Assembly (NCBI RefSeq): GCF_001677475.2
Contig: NZ_CP015229.1
DNA from: Escherichia coli
Lineage (GTDB): Bacteria > Pseudomonadota > Gammaproteobacteria > Enterobacterales > Enterobacteriaceae
Length of the DNA stretch: 64,000 nt
Strand: one strand, 5' to 3'
Part shown: positions 1,641-11,605 of the stretch, piece after piece
Layout: every line of letters starts with the position of its first letter
Numbering within the stretch: position 1 is the stretch's first letter
Position numbers and translations under genes: made by a program
Notes under the pieces: generated by a model
The model's database searches: none
Seen by the model: only the letters and a program-made list of their open reading frames with translations
What the model was told of the DNA's origin: nothing

Positions 1641-2621
1641 CTAACGTCCTGCTTTTAACAATAACCAGATAAACACCGGCGCACCTAACGTTGCGGTGAC
1701 CACGCCAATAGGCAGCTCTGCGGCAGCTAATGCCAGGCGCGCTACAACATCGGCCAGCAGCAATGCGCTCGCCCCTGCCAGCGCGCAGCCTGGAAGTAAT
1801 ACGCGATGATCGGTTAAACCACACAGCCGGAGAATATGTGGGATCACCAGACCAATAAAGCCGATAGCACCCGCCAGCGCCACACTGACGCCAACCATCC
1901 AGCCGGTCACTGCGACCAACACATTGCGCCAGAACCACAGGGGTAAACCCAGTTGCCGCGCCGAGATCTCGCCAAGTGCTAACATATTCATCGGCCTGGA
2001 CTGACAACAGATCCACAACAACACGGGGATCAATGCCAGCATCAGCCAGCTTTGCCGCCAGTCTACGCCGCCAAAACCGCCCATCATCCAGTACATCAGC
2101 TGACGCAAATCAACAGAGGTGGAAAAGTAGATAGCCCACGTCATTAGTGCGCTACAGATAATCCCTAATGCAACGCCAGCCAGCAATAACCGACTGGTCG
2201 AAAGATGACGACGGGCGAAACGTAAGAGTATTAAAGTGATGATAAGCGCGCCAGCAATCGCACACAGCCCCAGCGCCCAGTTGGGGAGTTGCCCTTGCCC
2301 AAGCAATACCGCGGCGATAAGCCCCACGCCTGCGCCATTAGAGACGCCAAGTAGTCCAGGTTCTGCCAGAGGATTTTCAAACAACGCCTGCATTACTGCG
2401 CCGGATATAGCCAGCGCCGCACCAACCAGCAATACAGCCAGCGTACGTGGCAGGCGAATTTGCCAGACGAACAGTTCGCCACGAGGAGTAAACCAGTCAC
2501 CTGGCGAGATCCATTGTTCACCGGCGCAAAGGCTTAAGAGAAGCGCCAGCAGCATCAAAACTGACAGGCATAATAACCAGCGAATATTTTGTCGCTGTTG
2601 TTGGCGGGCAAGTGTCAGCAT
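1641..2621 (-). CDS. btuC: vitamin B12 ABC transporter permease
   Basis: 326-aa polytopic membrane ORF; FecCD-type permease; synteny. Confidence 0.95.
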
Positions 2622-2679
2622 GGTATCCGTTCTGCTGAAGTGTCATGGCGTTGATTTTACGGTGACTCTTCGACAGTGA

Positions 2680-2704
2680 AAAGAAAAAAGGCCGCAGAGC
2701 GGCC
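2680..2704. repeat. attL core: 25-bp direct repeat aaagaaaaaaggccgcagagcggcc (copy of the ihfA terminator stem)
   Basis: Exact 25-bp identity with 39479-39503. Confidence 0.85.
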
Positions 2705-2793
2705 ATAAACACAAACAAAAATCAATAAGTTAGATAATTATCAAAGACTTACAGACACACAAAAACACAGCAAACCACAACAAATAACATAGA

Positions 2794-2813
2794 TGTGGTC
2801 AATTTGTGGATCA
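2794..2813. promoter_or_regulatory. putative integrase arm-type binding sites (tgtggtca / tgtggatca direct repeats)
   Basis: TGTGGNCA-like repeats adjacent to att core, matching tgtggaca near attR (39423-39430). Confidence 0.4.
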
Positions 2814-3344
2814 TCATCCAACAAATTTAGCAACAAATACAGCAACCGCCGCCGTGAAAATGGTTGTGCATACTGGCACAATAATGCCACTCCAACGCCA
2901 CTTCGTATTATCATCAACCTTGTCAAACCGCCGATTCATCTCATCCATAATCTTGTCAAAGCGTTTATCCATCGCTTCGGTAAGCTCACCCTTCAGGCTG
3001 TTAATGTCTGATTTGAGCTGCTCTTTCAGGTTAGCTGTATCAGATTTAAGCTCACCTTTCAGATTCGCAATATCGCATTTAAGATCACCTTTCAGATTCG
3101 CAATGTCTGCTTTGAGCTCACCTTTAACCTCACCAACATCGGCTTTGGTTGAGAGGTTTGTAGTGCGTTCAGCAAGCGTCGCAAGGTCGTTTCTTGTTAG
3201 CGATAAATCACCTTCGAGCCGCTCAATTCGCCTTTCAAGTTTATCTGACATTCCGCCTCCACTATCACCGCCTCCCCCACCGAAAGAGTTGCCAATGTCC
3301 TCACGAATAAGGGTTATGCCATGCTCACTTTTAGCATATGCCAC
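2814..3344 (-). CDS. hypothetical tail-anchored membrane protein with Gly-rich linker and five 11-residue coiled-coil repeats (prophage cargo)
   Basis: 176-aa ORF; repeats KADIANLKGDL/KCDIANLKGEL...; C-terminal hydrophobic helix IIVPVCTTIFTAAVAVFVAKFV; start abuts stop of upstream ORF. Confidence 0.6.
   Translation of the reverse strand: MAYAKSEHGITLIREDIGNSFGGGGGDSGGGMSDKLERRIERLEGDLSLTRNDLATLAERTTNLSTKADVGEVKGELKADIANLKGDLKCDIANLKGELKSDTANLKEQLKSDINSLKGELTEAMDKRFDKIMDEMNRRFDKVDDNTKWRWSGIIVPVCTTIFTAAVAVFVAKFVG
3000..3135. repeat. tandem ~33-bp coding repeats (about 4 copies) inside the cargo membrane-protein gene
   Basis: Repeated ...agctcacctttcagattcgcaat... units visible in the sequence. 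Confidence 0.7.
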
Positions 3345-3758
3345 TCAGATTCCCTCCCAAACTATATATCCTTTGTCTCTTGCCCAACAAACAACTGTGT
3401 GGGCTGTATATGTGGATGTGAAGCCGCAATAAGAACATGACACTTCATACCGAGTATTGTAGATGTTAATGGGCTCGTTCTCCTTGTGTATGGGAGTGAC
3501 ATATTCCCAATCATTTGAATCATCATAATCATCAAGTTCAGGGTCTGTGCCGTGAACAACCGTATGTGGAATAAACAAATCTAGGCGCCCACACGAGAGA
3601 CAAGAGGTTCTGGCTCCTCTATCTTTAAGGAATTGAATAAATAATTTGGGCGAAATCTGTTGCAGAACCTGCAAATGCCCACGTTCATTATCATTAAGAG
3701 ACCTGTCTGCATATGGAAAATCATCAAATTTAAGAGGCTTCATATAAGGCATCTCCAA
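3345..3758 (-). CDS. hypothetical Cys-rich protein (two CxxC motifs, possible zinc ribbon), prophage cargo
   Basis: 137-aa ORF immediately downstream of int, overlapping the int 3' end and followed without gap by the 176-aa ORF; start may be an internal Met (about 3743). Confidence 0.55.
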   Translation of the reverse strand: MEMPYMKPLKFDDFPYADRSLNDNERGHLQVLQQISPKLFIQFLKDRGARTSCLSCGRLDLFIPHTVVHGTDPELDDYDDSNDWEYVTPIHKENEPINIYNTRYEVSCSYCGFTSTYTAHTVVCWARDKGYIVWEGI

Positions 3759-4722
3759 GGGGATTAAATCTCACCGCATCCTGCAGGTAATCCGGCGCAA
3801 GATGGGCATAAATCATCGTTGTCTGAATCTTTGCGTGCCCCAGAATTTTCTGGAGCGTCAGAATATTGCCGCCGTTCATCATGAAATGACTGGCGAAGGT
3901 GTGGCGCAGCGCATGAACAGCCTGGCCGTCAGGAACATCAGGTGCGACCGTTTTGATGACATCGCGAACCAATGGATAATCCAGCGTCGGAAACACCAGT
4001 TTCCCGCCCCGTTTTTTGATCTTTTCAAACAGGCTTTCAGAAATAGGAACGGTACGGTTTTTGCTGTTCTTCGTTTTTGAAAAAGTGATTCGACAATGAA
4101 GAACACGGCGCTGCTCCAGTGCCGCTACCTCGCCCCATCGCGCCCCGGTCGACAGAAGGATTTCGACAGCCAGCCGTTCATCGGGATTTTCAGCCAGTGC
4201 ATCCAGCAACTGAACACATTCAGACTTACTCAGATATCCCATTTCGCGCTCGTTAACCTTCATTCCTTTAAGGCCTTGAACGGGGTTATCGTTAAGAAAA
4301 TGGCCGGATGAGATGAGTGCGGTAAACATCGCGCTTAACGCCCCAATCTCTCGATTTATGGTGCTGGGCTGTATCCCCTGCTCTATCCTGGACACACGTA
4401 GCTCGGTGAGCATCGTTGTATTAAGTTTATGCACGCACGGGTCATCCATTGCCTCACTCAAGCGCAGCAATTTAAGGCGCGTGTTATGCCCTGACTTCAT
4501 TAGCTGGCCGTGGTATTTCCACCACAAGTCAATAAGCACCGACAGCGGACGGCGATCAATGGAGTTTCCTTTCCACTCATTGTTATGCTGTTGCGCCAGC
4601 ACCCACCGCTCATATAAAACTGCATCCGATTTCGTTTTAAATTTTTTGCGAATGCGTTTGCCTTTACGCCCCTCCGGGCGCATGTCAAGAAGATACCCTC
4701 CCGGAATTGATTTTATGCTCAT
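3730..4722 (-). CDS. int: tyrosine integrase, P2 Int-like
   Basis: N-terminus MSIKSIPGGYLLDMRPEGRKGKRIRKKF... resembles P2 Int; C-terminal HxxR...Y catalytic region (HALRHTFASH...MIYAHL); start chosen at Met 51 of the longer ORF. Confidence 0.9.
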   Translation of the reverse strand: MSIKSIPGGYLLDMRPEGRKGKRIRKKFKTKSDAVLYERWVLAQQHNNEWKGNSIDRRPLSVLIDLWWKYHGQLMKSGHNTRLKLLRLSEAMDDPCVHKLNTTMLTELRVSRIEQGIQPSTINREIGALSAMFTALISSGHFLNDNPVQGLKGMKVNEREMGYLSKSECVQLLDALAENPDERLAVEILLSTGARWGEVAALEQRRVLHCRITFSKTKNSKNRTVPISESLFEKIKKRGGKLVFPTLDYPLVRDVIKTVAPDVPDGQAVHALRHTFASHFMMNGGNILTLQKILGHAKIQTTMIYAHLAPDYLQDAVRFNPLGDALYEAS

Positions 4723-4771
4723 TCGTGAAACCCCAGCGTTACAAGACCACCATGCCCCCAGCGCTCCATGA

Positions 4772-5083
4772 TTAGCCGGGCTGTGTGCCAGTCTTGCGGG
4801 GTTTTTGAGAAGGCGATGTGCTTTTTGGCCCATCAGGGGAGAGAGACGGACTGATCTGCCCAGCAGCCTCATTTGTTTCGTTACTCATCAACCACGTGGT
4901 GTATTTTTTAAAGTTCGGATGCATTGTGATTTTCAGTAAAACCTCCGTCCCCACACCTCTAATACCAGTCTCATATTGCTTAACTGTACCAACCGCAATA
5001 CCTATTGAATCCGCGAACTTTGCCTGGCTAAGTCCCTCAGATTCTCGAATTGCTTTTAGCTTCTTTGATATCTCTATTGACAT
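4772..5083 (-). CDS. C: immunity repressor, P2 C-like (HTH)
   Basis: 103-aa ORF upstream of int, divergent from cox; HTH and C-terminal tail resemble P2 C. Confidence 0.8.
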   Translation of the reverse strand: MSIEISKKLKAIRESEGLSQAKFADSIGIAVGTVKQYETGIRGVGTEVLLKITMHPNFKKYTTWLMSNETNEAAGQISPSLSPDGPKSTSPSQKPRKTGTQPG

Positions 5084-5178
5084 GGTGTGCACCTGAATAC
5101 TATATTGGTTATCAGTTGAGTACCACTTGACGCCACAAAAAGCCACAAATAGCACCAGATTGAATAGGTTATCACATC
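5084..5178. promoter_or_regulatory. lysis-lysogeny switch region (divergent Pc/Pe promoters and operator repeats)
   Basis: 95-bp gap between divergent C and cox; ggttatca direct repeats and a TTGACG -35-like hexamer. Confidence 0.5.
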
Positions 5179-5457
5179 ATGGCAAAAGTCCTGAACACAT
5201 ACGAACAAGCGGATTTTGAGCGTTTGGCGGCGTTCTACCCATACCGTGATGAGCATGGGTTACCTGTGCTTGAAGAAAGCCTGGAAGATTACGCGAAACG
5301 CACGAATCAAAGCATTCTTGCGGTAAGAAGGCAGGCCGACAGATCAGTAATCCCCGTCACCCAAGAAGGAAGAAACACAAAACGCAAAGTAAACCTTTTC
5401 GCAATATTCCTGAAAACCATCAGGAGCGCAGAGAAATACGTGCAGATGACAAAATAA
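5179..5457 (+). CDS. cox: Cox/Apl-like excisionase and transcriptional regulator
   Basis: 92-aa first gene of the early operon, divergent from C; size and position as P2 Cox. Confidence 0.7.
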   Translation: MAKVLNTYEQADFERLAAFYPYRDEHGLPVLEESLEDYAKRTNQSILAVRRQADRSVIPVTQEGRNTKRKVNLFAIFLKTIRSAEKYVQMTK

Positions 5458-5471
5458 CGAGGTGTAATTTT

Positions 5472-5810
5472 ATGCTGAAGCAACGCCATAATTTTCGTAC
5501 CGGAACGGAACGCCACGCTAACCGTTTCGCTACCAGTGCATCACGTAGTAACTCCCGCTACAGCCTGAGCGAAACACACGCTACACCTGATGGCCATCCC
5601 GTAAAACAAATTGGTGAACACACCTGGCTGATTGAGAAAGCTGGAATCGTGGTTCACAGATGCCAACGCAACCCATTTACCGGAAACCGCATTTTTGCTC
5701 TGAGCAACGGCGACACTCAGTTTGGACAGGATTTCACATTGTACGAAGCACTTCGCACGGTTGATCGTCTGCTTCGCGGGCAAAGTTTTATTAAACAGAC
5801 TGATTTATAA
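5472..5810 (+). CDS. hypothetical early protein
   Basis: 112-aa ORF in early operon. Confidence 0.5.
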   Translation: MLKQRHNFRTGTERHANRFATSASRSNSRYSLSETHATPDGHPVKQIGEHTWLIEKAGIVVHRCQRNPFTGNRIFALSNGDTQFGQDFTLYEALRTVDRLLRGQSFIKQTDL

Positions 5811-5820
5811 CAGGTGCGTT

Positions 5821-6099
5821 ATGACCAAAGAGCATGCACAAGGTGTATTTATCCGTTTTATTGATTTTCGCGGTGAACTGTTATTGCGCGCATCAGCTAT
5901 TGATGGAGTTGTCCCATCAGAAAAAAATGCAGCTACTTACGTTTATCTGAACGGCACGCGCCTGACCGTAGAACTTCCGTACCAGACTGTACACGGAATC
6001 ATTAGCGAAGCTGAAAAGGCACGTCAGGTTAATGGCAATGAACCCTATATCGAAATTATTTGCATGGATTCAGAAGCTGAAATCCAGAAAGCAGATTAA
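5821..6099 (+). CDS. hypothetical early protein
   Basis: 92-aa ORF with aggtg RBS upstream of ATG 5821. Confidence 0.5.
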   Translation: MTKEHAQGVFIRFIDFRGELLLRASAIDGVVPSEKNAATYVYLNGTRLTVELPYQTVHGIISEAEKARQVNGNEPYIEIICMDSEAEIQKAD

Positions 6100-6110
6100 A
6101 GGGTGTTGCA

Positions 6111-6353
6111 ATGGACAAAGAATATAAAACACTCATCAACAAAGCACTTGAGCGTTTTTATTTTCGCTTAAGCGCATCAGGCGTTCATGCTGAACGTGCA
6201 GCCCGTGACTCATTGACCAGGGCAATCCGGAGTCTGTATGACGTGGCTTTTTACGCTGATGATCTGGATGCACTTAACGAACTTTCCGAGCTGATCTGTG
6301 CCGCAGAATGCGGAGAACATATTGAACCGTATAAGCTGGGGAATATCGCATGA
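6111..6353 (+). CDS. hypothetical early protein
   Basis: 80-aa ORF, tightly spaced in early operon. Confidence 0.5.
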   Translation: MDKEYKTLINKALERFYFRLSASGVHAERAARDSLTRAIRSLYDVAFYADDLDALNELSELICAAECGEHIEPYKLGNIA

Positions 6354-6467
6354 GTATATTTATCTCATGGCTTGTTCTGATTATTTCGGTGGCCTGCGCC
6401 ATTGGGATTATGCGAATTATTAATTCAGTGAAAAAGATCGAGCGTTTTTTCTCTGATGAATAACGAT
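6351..6467 (+). CDS. possible small membrane peptide (38 aa, MSIFISWLVLIISVACAIGIMRII...)
   Basis: Short ORF overlapping the previous stop (ATGA); single hydrophobic helix; below the ORF-track size cut-off. Confidence 0.35.
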
Positions 6468-6556
6468 ACAAATAAAACATCAAATTAAATAAGAAAACGT
6501 GAAAACCATCCGTATTAACGGAGGTATTCGCACACGCAAATAACGGAGATACAAAA

Positions 6557-6967
6557 ATGCACGCAAAAGAAGAAGGTATCATCAGAGCACTGAAAGAAAT
6601 TTCAAAGATGGAAAGCGAAGTAGCGAAAAAAGCCGTGGCCAATGCTCACATGGACGTCGCAACCCACACAATGATAGTCGCAAAAGTCACGGCAGAAGCT
6701 GCCAAAATCATCGAAGAACAGGGTGTGGAACTTGCGCTTCTCAAAACTAAACCAGTCACCGGACTGGATTTATCTGACACCGGACGCCTTATTTACACTA
6801 TTGGCTCGGAGTCACAGCGATACACCATTATCGCCGGATTACAGAACAAATACCTGATCACTCCTCATCCCATAAGGGAATCAGCGCTTCTGACAAATCT
6901 CCGCCTGATAGAGCGCTCTCAAGTTGCATTCATTGATGACGCCCGACACACCGTATTTAACGCATAG
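6557..6967 (+). CDS. hypothetical early protein
   Basis: 136-aa ORF preceded by an AT-rich spacer and a ggag RBS. Confidence 0.5.
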   Translation: MHAKEEGIIRALKEISKMESEVAKKAVANAHMDVATHTMIVAKVTAEAAKIIEEQGVELALLKTKPVTGLDLSDTGRLIYTIGSESQRYTIIAGLQNKYLITPHPIRESALLTNLRLIERSQVAFIDDARHTVFNA

Positions 6968-6990
6968 GGTTACTGGACAAAGGGGGTGCA

Positions 6991-7194
6991 ATGGCAATTA
7001 AGCATTTTCCCGTCGTTCGCTTTACCTCCAGAGGGCGCGAATACGAGGTCGACGAACGCCTGATTACCACTATCGACAAACATCGTTCGGAAAAGGATGC
7101 ACACCACATCTACCTCACTGACGGTACTTACTTCTGCGCCACCAACGTGGCGCGGGTGAATCTTATCCGACAGGTACAGGAGCCACGCAGATGA
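6991..7194 (+). CDS. hypothetical early protein
   Basis: 67-aa ORF, overlaps next start. Confidence 0.45.
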   Translation: MAIKHFPVVRFTSRGREYEVDERLITTIDKHRSEKDAHHIYLTDGTYFCATNVARVNLIRQVQEPRR

Positions 7195-7457
7195 CCATTC
7201 TGGACTACATCGCTACTCATCCGGGTTGTAGCGGCGGAGAGATCGCCGCAGCACTGAATACTCCAACCACAGCCATTAATGCTGAGTTACGCCAACTTTG
7301 GCGCGGCGGCTTAGTCATCAGAACAAACCGCAGCACAGGTGGTCGCGCTCGCAAAACTGGAGGCCAGGCTTCTTACCACGTAAACCCGATGCCGTTCGGG
7401 TGCGGCAATCCACTTACCAACATGTTTAACCAGCTACTGAAGGAAGCCAGAACATGA
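7191..7457 (+). CDS. hypothetical early protein, possible winged-helix DNA-binding fold
   Basis: 88-aa ORF, ATGA-coupled to neighbours. Confidence 0.5.
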   Translation: MTILDYIATHPGCSGGEIAAALNTPTTAINAELRQLWRGGLVIRTNRSTGGRARKTGGQASYHVNPMPFGCGNPLTNMFNQLLKEART

Positions 7458-7753
7458 GCACCATCAACCACCAGAAGCTACGCGAACTGGCATTTTCCCT
7501 GCAACGAATGGCAACGCCTCAAAAATTACTGGCGTTTCGCGCAATGCTCTCGCCGTCTGCTGTGCTGGCACTGCTGGATGAGCAGGAGCACGCCAGAACC
7601 ACGGCTCCTGCCATTCGCCTGACACTCCATCATGAAATTGCTGATTTCTGCGCGACGCTGGAGGCACCAGGCGAACCGGAAACGCCGGAAGCAATACAGC
7701 AAGAGCTGCTGCAACGCATTGACAAGGTTTTTGATTTTTTTCTGAACCACTAA
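7454..7753 (+). CDS. hypothetical early protein
   Basis: 99-aa ORF, ATGA-coupled. Confidence 0.5.
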   Translation: MSTINHQKLRELAFSLQRMATPQKLLAFRAMLSPSAVLALLDEQEHARTTAPAIRLTLHHEIADFCATLEAPGEPETPEAIQQELLQRIDKVFDFFLNH

Positions 7754-7875
7754 GAAACCAGAACATGCACACACAAAAAAACCGCTTGCCATGCCGCAAT
7801 CAGTCAGGTTACATTTCCGCTGCACCTCATAAAACGGGTGCCGGGTTTCGCAGCCTGCTAACTACACAAGCGCAC

Positions 7876-7897
7876 AACCGCGCCAGCGGTTTTTTTG
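7876..7897 (+). terminator. putative intrinsic terminator (accgc-gcca-gcggt stem followed by a T run)
   Basis: GC hairpin followed by tttttttg on the plus strand, within the 7754-8075 non-coding gap. Confidence 0.5.
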
Positions 7898-8075
7898 TGC
7901 GTACTGTATTGCCACGTTTTTTTCGCGCCAGAATTATGGCGGGGCGTACGGGGCCGACTTCGGTCGGGCCGGGTTCTTGTGTAGCCGGTACTGCGAACCT
8001 CGTACGTCTCGCCACCCACAGTTTCGCAGCTCTGGATGGTAAGTTTTCACAACTTACTACACAAGAGGCCACACC

Positions 8076-8306
8076 ATGGCAAACCGCAAACAACAGCGCG
8101 CATACGCTGCGCGTCGTCACATCCAGACTGAAATCAACCGCAGACTTTCCCGCGCATTCCGCGTCACTAAAATCATGCACATCAATATGCTGCATGAGCG
8201 TAGCTGCGAACTTTCAAACCTCTATTCATCCGCTGTTTTCAGCTATCTGGCGGATGATCTGCGCGAGCTTCAGCAGCTCATCCAGCAGCAAAACAAACTC
8301 CATTAA
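8076..8306 (+). CDS. hypothetical protein
   Basis: 76-aa basic ORF after the structured gap. Confidence 0.45.
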   Translation: MANRKQQRAYAARRHIQTEINRRLSRAFRVTKIMHINMLHERSCELSNLYSSAVFSYLADDLRELQQLIQQQNKLH

Positions 8307-8378
8307 TTCCTGTTCCGGGCCTTTCCTGCACCTTGCGGCGGGAGGCCTTCGCACATCTGTAGTAAAGAGAATTGCAGC

Positions 8379-8768
8379 ATGATTGACGCTCATGACTTCA
8401 CAAGATGGGTGCGCACACAGGACACCCGTCTGGCTCCCGTTCTTCAGGGATTATTTGATCTTTACATCCGTGGTCGTGACAACAGAGCACGCACTACAAA
8501 ACCGGAGAATGCGGACACCCTTTATTTCACAGTAGACGACTGCTACCGCGTGGACTTCACACCACACGGGCTGGCGTTGCACTGCCTGACACCACACGGC
8601 GAATCACTGCTGGCGTATTACGACTCCCCGGCCTCCGTATTTGCGGCAATGCTGGCGCATCGCACTGCTGGCGGGTGTGCCTCGCTGAGTGAATACACCG
8701 CTGAATTTAACCGCCTTTCCGCCATCTTCTCGCAGGAGTGGCAGCGCGTGACGGGATACCAGCCATGA
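8379..8768 (+). CDS. hypothetical protein; stop overlaps start of gene A
   Basis: 129-aa ORF; ATGA overlap at 8765-8768. Confidence 0.5.
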   Translation: MIDAHDFTRWVRTQDTRLAPVLQGLFDLYIRGRDNRARTTKPENADTLYFTVDDCYRVDFTPHGLALHCLTPHGESLLAYYDSPASVFAAMLAHRTAGGCASLSEYTAEFNRLSAIFSQEWQRVTGYQP

Positions 8769-11605
8769 GTGAGTTTGCATGGAGCTGGAATGAACCACGG
8801 CCAGCCATTGATCCGGCCAGATTTACGGAGCGCAGGCAGGAAACTGAAACCGACCTGCAACGCGCCATCCGTTACTACCTTGAGGCAGACAAAAGGGCAC
8901 AGGAAGAACAGGAAGCGAAGGAAGAAGCCTTTTTCGCACAATCCACCGTGGGTAAAAAACTCATGGCATCCCTTGAGGAAGCCGGACAGCGTGAAAAGCT
9001 GGCACAGAGCATCATCAGTAAGCGCCGGGCAACAGAACAAGACACGGTAGCCCGTGCCTTTGCCACACTAAAGGCACTACCTGTTTATCTGCGTGAACCA
9101 CTGAGCCGCCACCTCTCTTTCCTGCGCAAAAAACAGGAAGCCGATCGCCGGAAAGGCAAAAAGAGCTGGCAGGCGGAACGCTATGCACGCGGAACCCTGC
9201 GCAAAATATTCGAACGTCTGGACCGCACCGACAGCCGCTGGCTGACACCGGGTTATCGCGCCCTTGCCGGACGCGAACGCCTGGACGATTTGCTTTACCT
9301 GCCGCAGCTCAACAAACACCAGATACAGACGCTGGCCACCATGACAGCGGCGATGTTCAGCAGCACCTTCGAAAAACTCTGCGATGGCTTTGGCGCGACT
9401 GATGGCGAGCTGACCATGGATGTAACGCTGAAGGCGTATCAGATGCTGGCCCGCATGGCGTTACACCTGCACGCCATGCCTCCGCATTATGACGTACTGA
9501 CAACAGACAAAGACCGGAGGAACGAACCAGACACAGAACTGCTGCCGGGCGCAATCCTTCGCCTGACCTGTGCGGAATGGTGGAAACGCAAACTGTGGCT
9601 GTTACGTTGCGAGTGGCGGGAAGAACAACTCCGAGCCGCCTGTCTGGTTTCCAGAAAAACATCGCCCTATCTGAGCCAGGACGCGTTAAGCGAGTTTCGC
9701 GCACAGCGCGAGAAAACACGCGATTTCCTGAAAAGTTTCATGCTGGAAAATGAAGACGGGTTCACGATTGATCTCGAGACGGTGTATTACGCGGGAGTAA
9801 GTAACCCGGTTCACCGTAAGGCAGAAATGATGGCCACCATGAAGGGACTGGAACTTCTGGCCGAAGCCCGTGGCGACAGAGCGGTGTTTCTGACCGTCAC
9901 CTGCCCGTCAAAATACCACGCAACAACGGAGAACGGTCATCCGAACCCCAAATGGAACGGGGCCACCATGCGCGACTCCAGCGATTACCTGGTTAACACG
10001 TTTTTTGCGGCGGTCCGCAAAAAACTGAACCGCGACGGCCTGCGCTGGTATGGCATCCGCACGGTGGAGCCTCACCATGACGGCACTGTGCACTGGCATA
10101 TGATGGTCTTTGCACATCCGGACGAGATTGAAACCATCGTGTCCCACGTCTGCGATATTGCCATTCAGGAGGACCGCCACGAGCTGGGCGATGACATAAC
10201 TCCGCGTTTTAAGGCGGAGTATGTCGACGGCTCAAAAGGCACACCAACCAGCTACATCGCCACCTACATCGGAAAGAACTTGGACAGCCGCGCCGTGGAT
10301 GGCATCGACCCGAAAACGGGCAAGCCACGCGTTGACCACGAAACCGGAAAATCAATGGCCGAGAGCGTGGAGCGCGCCATCGGCTGGGCGCGCCTTCACC
10401 GGGTCCGTCAGTTCCAGTTCTTTGGCATCCCCTCCCGTCAGGTGTGGCGTGAACTGCGCCGCCTTGCCAGCCAGATGGCACGCAATCCGGAAGGCCCGCA
10501 ACGGCTGAAAGATGATGCAATGGATGCGGTACTCGCTGCCGCCGATGCCGGGTGTTTTGCCACCTACATTGAAAAACAGGGTGGCGTGCTTGTTCCACGC
10601 AAGGACTACCTGATTCGCACCGCCTACGACCTCGCAGATGAGCTGAACGATTACGGCGAACAGAGCGTACAGATTTACGGGATCTGGTCACCACTCATCG
10701 GGGAATCCTCCCGTGTGTGCACGCATCCGGATAACTGGAAGTTGGTAAGACGTAAACCAGAACCGGAAGACAACGCCCACGAAAATGGTTTTGACCTTCA
10801 GGGCGGCCCTGCCGCCCCTTGGACTCGTGGCAATAACTGTCCCCGTGTACAGGAAACGGACAATAACGGGACAGAACTGCCGGAAGAACGGCCAGCACCG
10901 TGGCCGCAGCTCCCTGACGGCGTTGAAGTGAACGAATGGATGCGCTCACTGAAACAGCACGAACGCCGGGCGCTGATGCGTTCGCTTCGTGACAAACAGG
11001 CAAAAAACAGCAGTGATGAAATGCAGAGCTGGACACAGAGCCGCAAACAGCAGCGGCCTTTGCCTGATAACCACGAATTACTCGCTAAAGAATGGCGGGA
11101 GTCTGCTGAATCTCTCGGCCTGCATATCGGTGAACAACAGATGCAGCACCTGTTACGGGGCGGCAGCCTGTACGTTGACGGCAGCATCATTGCACCGCAG
11201 GGATTTGAAATTGTACGCAAACCGGATACCCGCCCGGACAGCCGAATCACGCAGCTCTGGCAGCGCCTGAGCCGTAATCATGGCGTAAGCAGCACGGAGA
11301 TCCGCCATAACCCGGTCGCCAGCTATCTGGCACAGCTGGGGGCATCAGACCCTGAAGTCGCCGCACGCCTGGCATCCACACTTCAGCAGGACCAGAACAC
11401 CATGAAAACACCCGTTACCGTGCTTTCTGACATGCTGCGCGCCATCCGCGACGCAGAGCACGCACAGAGAATCAGTGAAACCACTGAACGCGCCCGCCGC
11501 AAAGCAGACCTGCTGCGGGGTGGCCTGACCAGTGGAAACAAAAAACAGACAGAAACGGGACTCATGAATCCCGTAAATGAGCAAAAAACGCGCAGCGATA
11601 TATGA
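8765..11605 (+). CDS. A: replication initiation endonuclease, P2 gpA-like (rolling-circle HUH nickase) with long C-terminal extension
   Basis: HUH-type motif in GTVHWHMMVFAHPD; position after early genes; 946 aa from ATG 8765. Confidence 0.85.
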   Translation: MSEFAWSWNEPRPAIDPARFTERRQETETDLQRAIRYYLEADKRAQEEQEAKEEAFFAQSTVGKKLMASLEEAGQREKLAQSIISKRRATEQDTVARAFATLKALPVYLREPLSRHLSFLRKKQEADRRKGKKSWQAERYARGTLRKIFERLDRTDSRWLTPGYRALAGRERLDDLLYLPQLNKHQIQTLATMTAAMFSSTFEKLCDGFGATDGELTMDVTLKAYQMLARMALHLHAMPPHYDVLTTDKDRRNEPDTELLPGAILRLTCAEWWKRKLWLLRCEWREEQLRAACLVSRKTSPYLSQDALSEFRAQREKTRDFLKSFMLENEDGFTIDLETVYYAGVSNPVHRKAEMMATMKGLELLAEARGDRAVFLTVTCPSKYHATTENGHPNPKWNGATMRDSSDYLVNTFFAAVRKKLNRDGLRWYGIRTVEPHHDGTVHWHMMVFAHPDEIETIVSHVCDIAIQEDRHELGDDITPRFKAEYVDGSKGTPTSYIATYIGKNLDSRAVDGIDPKTGKPRVDHETGKSMAESVERAIGWARLHRVRQFQFFGIPSRQVWRELRRLASQMARNPEGPQRLKDDAMDAVLAAADAGCFATYIEKQGGVLVPRKDYLIRTAYDLADELNDYGEQSVQIYGIWSPLIGESSRVCTHPDNWKLVRRKPEPEDNAHENGFDLQGGPAAPWTRGNNCPRVQETDNNGTELPEERPAPWPQLPDGVEVNEWMRSLKQHERRALMRSLRDKQAKNSSDEMQSWTQSRKQQRPLPDNHELLAKEWRESAESLGLHIGEQQMQHLLRGGSLYVDGSIIAPQGFEIVRKPDTRPDSRITQLWQRLSRNHGVSSTEIRHNPVASYLAQLGASDPEVAARLASTLQQDQNTMKTPVTVLSDMLRAIRDAEHAQRISETTERARRKADLLRGGLTSGNKKQTETGLMNPVNEQKTRSDI

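Follow-up and report, generated by a model that had tools for sequence, protein, structure and literature searches.

The 64,000-nucleotide stretch of Escherichia coli DNA that was analysed (the window) carries a P88-like prophage of the Xuanwuvirus type (Peduoviridae), and the region described here is part of its early lytic operon. The Peduoviridae phages 569R5 and 705R2 and the phage Shae_phiSM showed 92-94% DNA identity to the window prophage. The gene neighbourhood included an integrase, an HTH repressor (with an HTH_3 domain in its product), a cox-like gene, DUF4761 and DUF4754 genes, a MarR-type wHTH gene, an Ead/Ea22-like gene, and a GpA-type replication endonuclease. The ORF map followed a P2-like layout, with the integrase and immunity repressor lying leftward and the Cox-type gene and early operon rightward, up to the GpA rolling-circle replication endonuclease; a 955-aa protein aligned in position with the annotated GpA replication endonucleases of 569R5, P88, and EDL933. 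The genes for DUF4761, DUF4754, and a 37-aa peptide, which are early genes specific to the P88-like (Xuanwuvirus) group, were all present in the window prophage and had tblastn matches in 14 P88-like phage records only. The features of the locus are as follows.

4772-5155, minus strand: HTH repressor gene, divergent, left of the early promoter
5077-5106, plus strand: probable early promoter Pe, TTGACA-18-TATATT, 11 of 12 consensus matches
5179-5457, plus strand: cox-like gene, right of Pe
6111-6353, plus strand: DUF4754 gene, 80 aa, backbone (PF15946, E 4.9e-54; phrog_2549)
6350-6463, plus strand: gene of the 37-aa single-pass membrane peptide (38 codons with the stop), ATGA-coupled to DUF4754, conserved backbone
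6464-6556, plus strand: intercistronic spacer; the first 74 bp (to 6537) are backbone and the last 19 bp are the cassette leader
6509-6532, plus strand: hairpin TCCGT-ATTA-ACGGA followed by GGTATTCGCA, stems at 6509-6513 and 6518-6522, the last backbone element before the slot
6538-6977, plus strand: optional single-gene cassette of 440 bp, with a 19-bp leader containing the SD, the ORF, and a 10-bp trailer, from alignment with P88, Chuche, and 569R5
6557-6967, plus strand: 136-aa ORF of the phrog_9338 family, with GGAG at 6545-6548, 8 nt before the ATG
6991-7194, plus strand: 67-aa backbone gene (phrog_3459), right flank of the slot
8738-11605, plus strand: replication gene A, towards which the early operon runs rightward from Pe

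Upstream of the peptide gene, Pe was the sole strong sigma-70-like site on the plus strand, and the next plus-strand promoter-like site was at 7786. The scan used a simple consensus, and a promoter in the AT-rich spacer could have escaped it if weak or dependent on an activator. For most genes between cox and A, the Pfam and PHROG-type family libraries that we scanned gave no function, and our search of the literature on DUF4754, the accessions of the proteins, the diversity of P2-like phages, and small membrane proteins turned up nothing about these genes.

The DUF4754 gene is well constrained among relatives (pN/pS 0.15), and its TGA (6351-6353) is overlapped as ATGA by the ATG at 6350 of an ORF whose product is MSIFISWLVLIISVACAIGIMRIINSVKKIERFFSDE. 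An SD-like GGGGA lies 7 nt upstream of this start. The Kyte-Doolittle mean of 2.2-2.7 (19-residue windows) across the first ~20 residues fits one transmembrane helix, which is followed by a charged tail. The original prediction of a 38-codon ORF with a single transmembrane helix overlapping the preceding stop was therefore accurate, with coordinates within one base (6350 versus 6351). Besides the translation signal given by the coupled start and the GGGGA motif, the ORF behaved like coding sequence in comparisons: pN/pS was 0.32 in frame but 1.11 and 0.91 when the frame was shifted, and third-codon positions varied about twice as often. It was intact in 122 of 124 related loci (chosen via the hairpin motif described below), and divergent transmembrane homologues of 46-47 aa were found at the same position in loci L008 and L213. 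Homologues of the peptide formed 108 protein clusters, and every cluster with a named source came from Escherichia. Profile searches of the peptide in Pfam, NCBIfam, PADLOC, and PDB returned nothing meaningful. These comparisons show the 37-aa ORF to be a true gene of the backbone, under purifying selection and with its start coupled to the DUF4754 stop. The peptide would insert N-out/C-in in the inner membrane and would have a host-directed early function.

We considered whether the 37-aa ORF might instead be a type I toxin-like or kil-like membrane peptide, or no functional gene at all, its conservation coming from overlapping RNA or DNA signals. Toxins of the Hok, Ldr, and TisB type are small, strongly hydrophobic peptides that carry a charged tail, and the peptide resembles this class in its 37-aa size, its one hydrophobic helix, and its charged C-terminal tail. 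In addition, weak minus-strand promoter-like sites run from 6434 to 6407 and from 6605 to 6578, a terminator-like hairpin on the same strand runs from 6522 to 6509, and no family library recognised the peptide. However, the frame-specific purifying selection points to a translated product, and the minus-strand promoter-like sites were at chance level (5 found versus 4.3 expected), one of them inside the optional cassette. Rfam gave no significant match (best E 1.4). Unlike genes of the Hok/Ldr/TisB class, the peptide gene lacks its own promoter and a long leader, an antisense RNA partner is not supported, the sequence resembles no library family, and translation is coupled to DUF4754 inside a phage operon. 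We regard this alternative as distinctly improbable. A toxic or host-directed role of a translated, operon-coupled peptide agrees with the explanation that we prefer.

Downstream of the peptide gene, the AT-rich spacer predicted at roughly 90 bp was 93 bp long with 33% G+C, versus 43-54% in the neighbouring genes. Among relatives, its 5' half was variable and its 3' half conserved, and the simple consensus scan found no plus-strand promoter-like or terminator-like site in it. The original prediction had placed the peptide and the spacer within a small insertion. Both are conserved in all P88-like phages, also when the slot downstream is empty, and alignment thus places them in the conserved backbone, outside any insertion. 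A helix sequestering the RBS, in which the last peptide codons base-pair with the 136-aa gene's SD and AUG, appeared in the minimum-free-energy fold of the window sequence (z -4.4) but was absent from RNAalifold predictions across occupied or empty loci, and we rejected it.

A 5-bp hairpin with GGAGG(TATTCGC) behind it closes the backbone part of the spacer. This motif occurred once in the window, against a chance expectation of 0. Covariation was counted in loci anchored on DUF4754 or the peptide, and the first set of 120 loci, picked via the hairpin motif, was excluded from the assessment of hairpin conservation. All loci selected by other criteria contained the hairpin, even L008, L213, and L214, whose spacers do not otherwise align, and 99.2% of stem cells were paired across loci. 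Two pairs showed C-G to U-A double changes, these two pair types being present in 7 of the 25 distinct hairpin sequences, all closely related. The loop was variable. The single-sided variants were two G-U wobbles, which pair only in plus-strand RNA, and the folding energy was -12.1 kcal/mol (z -3.8). The hairpin would act in the sense-strand mRNA, perhaps as a pause, processing, or stability element between the first early block and the downstream block.

Could the inverted repeat serve on the DNA or on the other strand? One possibility is that it acts as an intrinsic terminator of leftward transcripts; another is that Cox or the MarR-type wHTH binds it as a palindromic DNA operator. There is no U-run 3' of the stem on the plus strand, which continues GGUAUUCGCACACGC; on the minus strand, a T-rich run (GGTTTTCACGTTTTCTTATTT) follows the hairpin, and the scanner called it terminator-like on that strand only. 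The form TCCGC-N4-GCGGA is a perfect palindrome, and the wHTH gene lies 0.7 kb downstream. However, the single-sided variants that give G-U pairs on the plus strand would be A-C mismatches on the minus strand, the loop varies freely, and the double changes keep complementarity rather than base identity. No downstream leftward transcription unit is evident, and neither a terminator nor an operator explains the invariant GGAGG(TATTCGC) tail 3' of the plus-strand hairpin. We consider both of these possibilities unlikely and favour an element of the sense-strand mRNA. Three further readings of the hairpin region were rejected. In an extended 13-bp stem, the 5' arm varied with mismatches and the 3' arm was invariant, and pairing did not account for the conserved GGAGGTATTCGC tail. 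A tiny ORF (GTG-MKTIRINGGIRTRK) spanning the hairpin had a start that was not conserved (GTA in P88), and its substitutions fit pairing, not coding. As a target of downstream isrK or C4-like RNAs, the hairpin gave duplex energies no better than the operon average.

Immediately after the hairpin lies a variable slot. In alignments, the slot was empty in P88 and Chuche and occupied in 569R5, a clean presence/absence difference: the flanks join between the hairpin and the RBS of the following gene, close to both, and in phages with an empty slot the 67-aa gene directly follows the hairpin. The cassette boundaries are uncertain by about 3 bp owing to a shared CAA. The cassette was missing from about half of the related prophages. 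Among 80 DUF4754-anchored loci, the slot was empty in 41, held the 136-aa family in 27, a 105-aa gene in five, and an 87-aa gene in four, and was unresolved in three. In complete E. coli genomes, cassette-like DNA was present at 876 places versus 1492 places with the P88-like backbone (~59% occupied). The slot contents were therefore of few kinds: nothing, a member of the 136-138-aa family, or one of two other genes for small helical proteins (87 aa and 105 aa). These alternative occupants belong to phrog_21900 and phrog_26764, each matching its own PHROG. The 87-aa occupant weakly resembled the N-terminal helical hairpin of the 136-aa protein (hhalign E 0.0025, probability 12%); the 105-aa occupant showed no resemblance to it. 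The G+C content was 46.1% in the cassette, 46.1% in DUF4754, and 49.6% in the early operon.

The predicted small insertion in the early operon thus stands in part: there is a discrete 440-bp unit that P88 and Chuche do not have, but the peptide and spacer do not belong to it, and the event may have been a deletion. Proteins of the family sharing about 25-42% identity with the window protein occupied exactly the same slot in backbones with 41-82% identical DUF4754. Given these diverged members in the same slot and the ~59% occupancy, the empty state may be a deletion, i.e., a loss in P88. Under such a history, the 136-aa gene would be ancestral to the slot, P88 and similar phages would have lost it, and no insertion would have taken place in the lineage of the window. 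The shared slot in diverged backbones, the occupied state being the majority in complete E. coli genomes, and an empty junction that is obtained from the occupied sequence by removing what lies between two CAA-containing sites all speak for loss. The presence of the unrelated or barely related phrog_21900 and phrog_26764 genes in the slot implies that replacement and gain also occur. We regard ancestral presence followed by loss as having about an even chance.

The 136-aa ORF in the slot has its own RBS, as had been predicted, in the GGAG 8 nt upstream of its start. Its product matched phrog_9338 over the full length (E 5.9e-68; residues 1-136 versus positions 1-138 of the 138-position profile) and had 73 homologous protein clusters. 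Profile searches in Pfam, NCBIfam, PADLOC, and PDB gave nothing meaningful and no relative of known function. In PADLOC-DB v2, with E values up to 1, no family was matched by the peptide, the 136-aa protein, or the 67-aa protein. The AlphaFold2 model (mean pLDDT 86) showed an N-terminal antiparallel helical hairpin (residues 3-64) and a C-terminal SH3-like small beta-barrel (~78-125), with modelled strands at 78-81, 84-95, 98-103, 116-119, and 123-125 and pLDDT of 77-89 over most of that region. Foldseek matches to the Spt5 KOW, MIA SH3, Tudor, PWWP, Hfq, and designed SH3 barrel folds were weak (E 0.07-2).

The 136-aa gene had a pN/pS of 0.51, and its pN of 0.157 versus 0.03 in the flanking genes corresponds to about fivefold faster change at non-synonymous sites; the tip of the helical hairpin was the most variable part of the protein. 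Fast evolution, as in the slot occupants, is what genes usually show when they take part in conflicts of phages with hosts or with other phages. In no 12-codon window of the gene did pN/pS exceed 1 (maximum 0.88), giving no sign of positive selection, and relaxed constraint accounts for the values equally well. The simple consensus scan found no promoter or terminator belonging to the gene. As the scan found no separate promoter for the peptide or the 136-aa gene, both products would be made only upon derepression of the early operon. Phage P88 has been induced and plated, and its one-step growth curve has been measured (PMC5285337). Since P88, which was induced and grown lytically, has no 136-aa gene, the gene is dispensable. 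The 136-aa protein would be a non-essential accessory factor of the lytic cycle that binds a variable host or competitor target; it would serve in host takeover or in counter-defence, and its specificity would come from the variable hairpin tip. Such a role, accessory to the lytic cycle or directed against defences, is our guess, and the counter-defence idea comes solely from the gene being optional, fast-evolving, and located in the early operon.

An optional gene could also serve in lysogenic conversion, as a moron or defence gene that the lysogen expresses from a spacer promoter and that protects the host from other phages, like tin, old, and fun of P2. The DNA upstream of the 136-aa gene is AT-rich, alternative genes occupy the same slot, and the P2 family carries non-essential lysogenic-conversion genes such as tin (P2 annotation). 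However, the AT-rich spacer belongs to the backbone and accompanies empty and occupied slots alike; the cassette begins only 19 bp before the ATG, its trailer is 10 bp, and its G+C content is like that of the flanks. No plus-strand promoter-like site was found between 5106 and 7786 and no flanking terminator, a weak negative from a simple consensus, and PADLOC gave no match. The orientation and tight packing agree with a gene of the repressed early operon. A moron or lysogen-expressed defence gene is thus very improbable here, and we retain the accessory gene of the lytic operon as our reading.

We compared the early region with those of P2 and 186, as the original prediction had proposed. Both phages lack DUF4754, the peptide, and the 136-aa gene, and this comparison cannot test the insertion; the overall layout is common to all three. 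There is no sequence homology; DUF4761 is also missing from P2 and 186, and none of Fil, Dhr, and Orf78 is a membrane peptide. The layout of the P88-like operon is that of 186 (apl-cII-fil-dhr, tR1, CP79...A) and P2 (cox-orf78-B, a putative terminator, orf80...A). In each, the first block of small early genes closes with two short overlapping ORFs, followed by a gap with a 4-5-bp GC hairpin, GG-N-TTC...GCC, an SD, and the first ORF of a non-essential block leading to A. The two genes before tR1 in 186, fil and dhr, are early functions directed at the host. The P88-like stem (5 bp, with 3-4 G-C pairs) is similar in size to the annotated hairpins of 186 and P2, but it lacks the T-run of 186 tR1 and of the P2 terminator. 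The hairpin seems to occupy the site equivalent to 186 tR1 and the P2 early-operon terminator, a positional resemblance judged by eye.

The slot is also comparable to the variable loci of P2-like phages (tin, old, Z/fun; anti-phage genes), in which optional genes with alternative occupants lie at a fixed backbone position. The tin, old, and Z/fun loci are not part of the early operon, and lysogens express them from promoters that belong to these loci. The P88-like slot, by contrast, falls within the repressed early operon; the scan detected neither a promoter nor a terminator specific to it, and the occupants tested had no PADLOC match. The families phrog_9338, phrog_21900, and phrog_26764 are phage protein families, each of hypothetical function.

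Taken as sequence features, the peptide gene is real and conserved, the hairpin is conserved, and the optional gene evolves fast; the gene products are annotated elsewhere as hypothetical, and the roles given here are predicted. The account as a whole, an early-operon piece with a genuine peptide gene, a backbone spacer and hairpin, a variable slot, and an accessory 136-aa gene, seems to us quite probable. A bolder version holds that the hairpin-GGAGG marks an exchange slot whose occupants are unrecognised counter-defence or host-takeover proteins with the tip setting specificity, and that the hairpin is a new type of mRNA control element derived from a tR1-like terminator; this version is a long shot. 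If an occupant does prove to be a counter-defence protein, it would provide a new family and a search rule, namely to look directly after the hairpin. A hairpin with covariation could control expression across the operon. The tiny membrane peptide, which the comparisons support as a real gene, is labelled a hypothetical or membrane protein in RefSeq and is missing from the annotation of some phage records.

The region is an uncharacterised yet unsurprising part of a temperate phage, an ordinary feature. The genes between cox and A are nevertheless very common in E. coli, as P88-like prophages sit in 1343 of 5426 complete genomes (about a quarter), including UTI89, ST131, and O157:H7 EDL933. 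In a scan of one genome per species, a single locus was found, and the module is thus essentially confined to Escherichia and Citrobacter prophages.

The window carries a P2-family prophage. The features considered here, including the early-operon terminators of the reference phages P2 and 186, are as follows:

3730-4872, leftward, integrase (ORF listing)
4772-5155, leftward, HTH repressor gene (ORF listing)
5077-5106, rightward, strong promoter-like site, the probable early promoter Pe (promoter scan)
6111-6353, rightward, DUF4754 gene, 80 aa (ORF listing, family search)
6350-6463, plus strand, peptide ORF, 37 codons, ATG at 6350 (sequence reading of 5400-7800, ORF listing)
6464-6556, plus strand, 93-bp spacer, 33% G+C against 43-54% in neighbouring genes (sequence reading)
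6509-6532, plus strand, hairpin TCCGY-N4-RCGGA, then GGAGG(TATTCGC), conserved across relatives
~6538-6977, plus strand, cassette, a clean 440-bp difference (alignment)
6557-6967, plus strand, 136-aa ORF, GGAG 8 nt before the ATG (ORF listing)
P2 (L216) 2981-3008, annotated early-operon terminator (putative), compared to window 6509-6540
186 (L217) 2885-2913, annotated early-operon terminator, compared to window 6509-6540

The rightward order is a cox-like gene, DUF4761, a 92-aa gene, DUF4754, the peptide ORF, spacer and 136-aa ORF, a 67-aa gene and a MarR-type wHTH gene, followed by an Ead/Ea22-like gene, a region with two Rfam RNA matches and a 955-aa GpA-type replication endonuclease. From 5106 to 7786, no plus-strand promoter-like site was found in the promoter scan and no convincing plus-strand terminator in the terminator scan, which places the region within the repressed early lytic operon. 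Across a 1084-bp test region, the DNA of vB_EcoM-569R5, 705R2 and Shae_phiSM was 92-94% identical throughout, while that of phage P88 (Xuanwuvirus) reached the same identity within the left 427 bp only. The element is of a known kind, the non-essential genes of the P2-family early operon, and public records already list each of the three ORF-level features as a hypothetical gene. The finding is real but ordinary.

The small hydrophobic ORF predicted to overlap the preceding stop was recovered nearly to the base. Its ATG overlaps the DUF4754 TGA (6351-6353) as ATGA, a translational coupling, with GGGGA 7 nt upstream. The product, MSIFISWLVLIISVACAIGIMRIINSVKKIERFFSDE, is strongly hydrophobic over its first ~20 residues (mean hydropathy 2.2-2.7 in 19-residue windows) and has a charged tail. 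This 114-nt ORF is labelled "membrane protein" or "hypothetical protein" in the RefSeq and GenBank entries for P88, 569R5, EDL933 and further genomes, and some phage records leave it unannotated. It was intact in 122 of 124 related loci, always with the ATGA overlap. Among 46 distinct versions, third-codon positions were about twice as variable as first and second positions, and pooled pN/pS was 0.32 in frame versus 1.11 and 0.91 in the shifted frames. Diverged relatives, whose DUF4754 is ~41% identical to the window's, have at this position a 46-47-aa ORF encoding one hydrophobic helix and a basic tail, which aligns to the peptide with invariant S-W...S...A-I residues. The peptide is a real, conserved gene. 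Its family is restricted to Escherichia prophages (108 clusters; all source names given are "hypothetical"), and it matched no Pfam, PHROG, NCBIfam or PADLOC model. A type I toxin-like role fails on two requirements, its own transcription unit and an antisense RNA, although the peptide may still be toxic. It would be made only once Pe is derepressed and would span the inner membrane, its basic tail facing inwards. By positional analogy to fil and dhr of 186, which precede the terminator tR1 and share no homology with the peptide, a host-directed early function may be suggested.

The AT-rich spacer, predicted at roughly 90 bp, proved to be 93 bp. The alignment showed that peptide and spacer, up to ~6537, are common to P88 and Chuche, both of which lack the 136-aa gene, and the spacer is therefore backbone. 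Its 5' half varies among relatives. The hairpin was kept in every locus chosen independently of it, even in three diverged loci (L008, L213 and L214) whose remaining spacer is unalignable, and its motif occurs once in the window versus zero expected by chance. Across 25 distinct sequences from loci anchored on either DUF4754 or the peptide, 99.2% of cells were paired, with a single unpaired cell, and two of the five pairs showed C-G to U-A double changes. Two further variants are G-U wobbles, which on the opposite strand would be A-C mismatches, and the loop varied (ATTA, ATTC, ATCA, ACTC, ATGC). The double changes, plus-strand wobbles, near-complete pairing and varied loop favour a structure in the sense-strand mRNA, modestly, given the short stem and the close relationship of the sequences. 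The inverted repeat could instead serve as a terminator on the minus strand or as a DNA operator, but strand-specific wobbles and a freely varying loop weigh weakly against both.

Comparison of the early region with the annotated P2 and 186 records, suggested alongside the original prediction, revealed the same design and the same relative position for the hairpin. In both phages, the first early block is followed by a 4-5-bp GC hairpin, GGGC(A/T)TTCTTTT(T)GCC, a Shine-Dalgarno (SD) sequence and the next ATG; the build shared with the P88-like hairpin is a short GC hairpin, GG-N-TTC...GCC, SD and ATG. The 186 hairpin is annotated as terminator tR1, which according to its record is anti-terminated in early lytic transcription, and that of P2 as a putative terminator. 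The P88-like element (GCGGA-GGTATTCGCACACGCC), however, has no T-run, and because of this it failed the definition of a plus-strand intrinsic terminator in the terminator scan. Given its position and build, the sense-strand hairpin would be an element for pausing, processing or stability where two early blocks meet, and may be a decayed or repurposed terminator. The hairpin with covariation at the tR1-equivalent position, together with coding support for the peptide, is new here.

The 136-aa ORF with its own ribosome-binding site was confirmed. It sits in a cassette comprising a 19-bp leader with SD, the ORF and a 10-bp trailer, whose flanks meet just 3' of the hairpin and just 5' of the 67-aa gene's ribosome-binding site. 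Among 80 IMG/VR loci anchored on DUF4754, this slot was empty in 41 and held the 136-aa family in 27, a 105-aa helical protein in five and an 87-aa helical protein in four (three unresolved). The 105-aa protein (phrog_26764; L134 2808-3125), with its end overlapping the 67-aa gene's start, and the 87-aa protein (phrog_21900; L171 ~2943-3206), which abuts that gene, occupy in some P88-like prophages the same slot after the hairpin as window 6538-6977. Complete E. coli genomes contained the backbone at 1492 places (1343 of 5426 genomes) and cassette-like DNA at 876 places (836 genomes). This small variable slot, which has three or more alternative occupants, is newly defined here. The 136-aa gene is dispensable, because P88 lacks it, yet that phage could be induced and plated and gave a one-step growth curve (PMC5285337).

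Only 26 clusters of the 136-aa family came out of an exhaustive profile search covering 1.8 billion representative proteins. Members ~25-42% identical to the window protein occupy the same slot after DUF4754 and the peptide; in L214, DUF4754 is 82% identical to the window's and the slot protein only ~25%. The gene appears to be old in the slot. The predicted "small insertion" is correct only as a description relative to P88; the peptide and spacer are backbone, and an empty slot may reflect loss.

In 45 distinct loci, the 136-aa gene was fast-evolving (pS 0.31, pN 0.157, pN/pS 0.51) compared with the flanking DUF4754 (pN 0.030, pN/pS 0.15) and 67-aa genes (pN 0.032, pN/pS 0.20). An AlphaFold2 model from a 20-sequence alignment (mean pLDDT 86) predicted a pair of long antiparallel helices (residues 3-28 and 32-64) followed by a small barrel of five strands (~78-125). 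By pN/pS, the tip of the helical hairpin (residues 25-42) was least constrained (0.8-0.9), and no window of the gene had a ratio above 1. Alleles are mosaics of N- and C-terminal types, and short relatives of 75-86 aa consist of the helical hairpin alone, which the 87-aa occupant weakly resembles (hhalign E 0.0025, probability 12%). Neither Pfam nor the PDB yielded anything in profile searches, and the confident predicted fold for this orphan, fast-evolving family is new here. Within the ORF, a perfect 6-bp inverted repeat (CCAGTC-ACCG-GACTGG, 6752-6767) was flagged as terminator-like on both strands; it codes for the conserved PVTGLD linker between the two domains, and the match is probably chance.

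We consider this structural and evolutionary account probably correct. The 136-aa protein would be made only after Pe derepression, as an accessory lytic-cycle factor binding a variable host or competitor target in host takeover or counter-defence; a specific counter-defence function is doubtful. A lysogeny-expressed moron or defence gene is unlikely, as the scans found no promoter or terminator for the cassette, its composition equals that of its flanks, the AT-rich DNA is backbone and PADLOC gave no match.

It should be noted that GenBank KP063541.1 (P88) labels the DUF4754 gene at 2692-2934, equivalent to window 6111-6353, "DNA modification methyltransferase", and RefSeq names it DUF4754 family protein. 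The absence of a methyltransferase domain match in this 80-aa protein points to mis-annotation. A 4-kb contig from a "Collinsella sp." MAG (JAIJJM010000267.1) carries a gene for a DUF4754 protein with 96% identity to that of the E. coli prophage and is probably a binning contaminant. In E. coli ST131 strain 4993 (NZ_CP103557.1; locus coordinates 2074-3045), an IS1A element has taken the place of DUF4754 and the peptide ORF, together with the end of the 92-aa gene and the spacer's 5' part. The early operon of this prophage is disrupted; its hairpin and 136-aa gene are still present.

Elsewhere in the window, the stretch 7765-8382 is claimed by one protein family and two RNA families. Gathering-level Rfam matches to the Hfq-binding sRNA isrK (7822-7896, 66.5 bits) and C4 antisense RNA (7932-8019, 83.2 bits) fall within a 205-aa ORF that was called mechanically and is annotated as a protein in some phage records, and Pfam Phage_ASH matches residues 16-108 of it, the same DNA, just under the cut-off (E 1.6e-5). 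The odd composition of this ORF suggests that the genuine features are the RNAs, as part of an immunity module of P1/P7 c4-like or P4 CI-like type that lies upstream of a 129-aa gene and gene A. Past the integrase at the prophage end, two minus-strand genes (2814-3758) encode a coiled-coil protein of 176 aa, hydrophobic near its C-terminus and with weak apolipoprotein/CCDC90-like matches, and a cysteine-containing protein of 137 aa; both may be prophage cargo close to the attachment site. Rfam matches to the Phe leader (43420-43544, minus strand) and sRNA STnc540 (39427-39579, minus strand) identify the window's right part as host chromosome.
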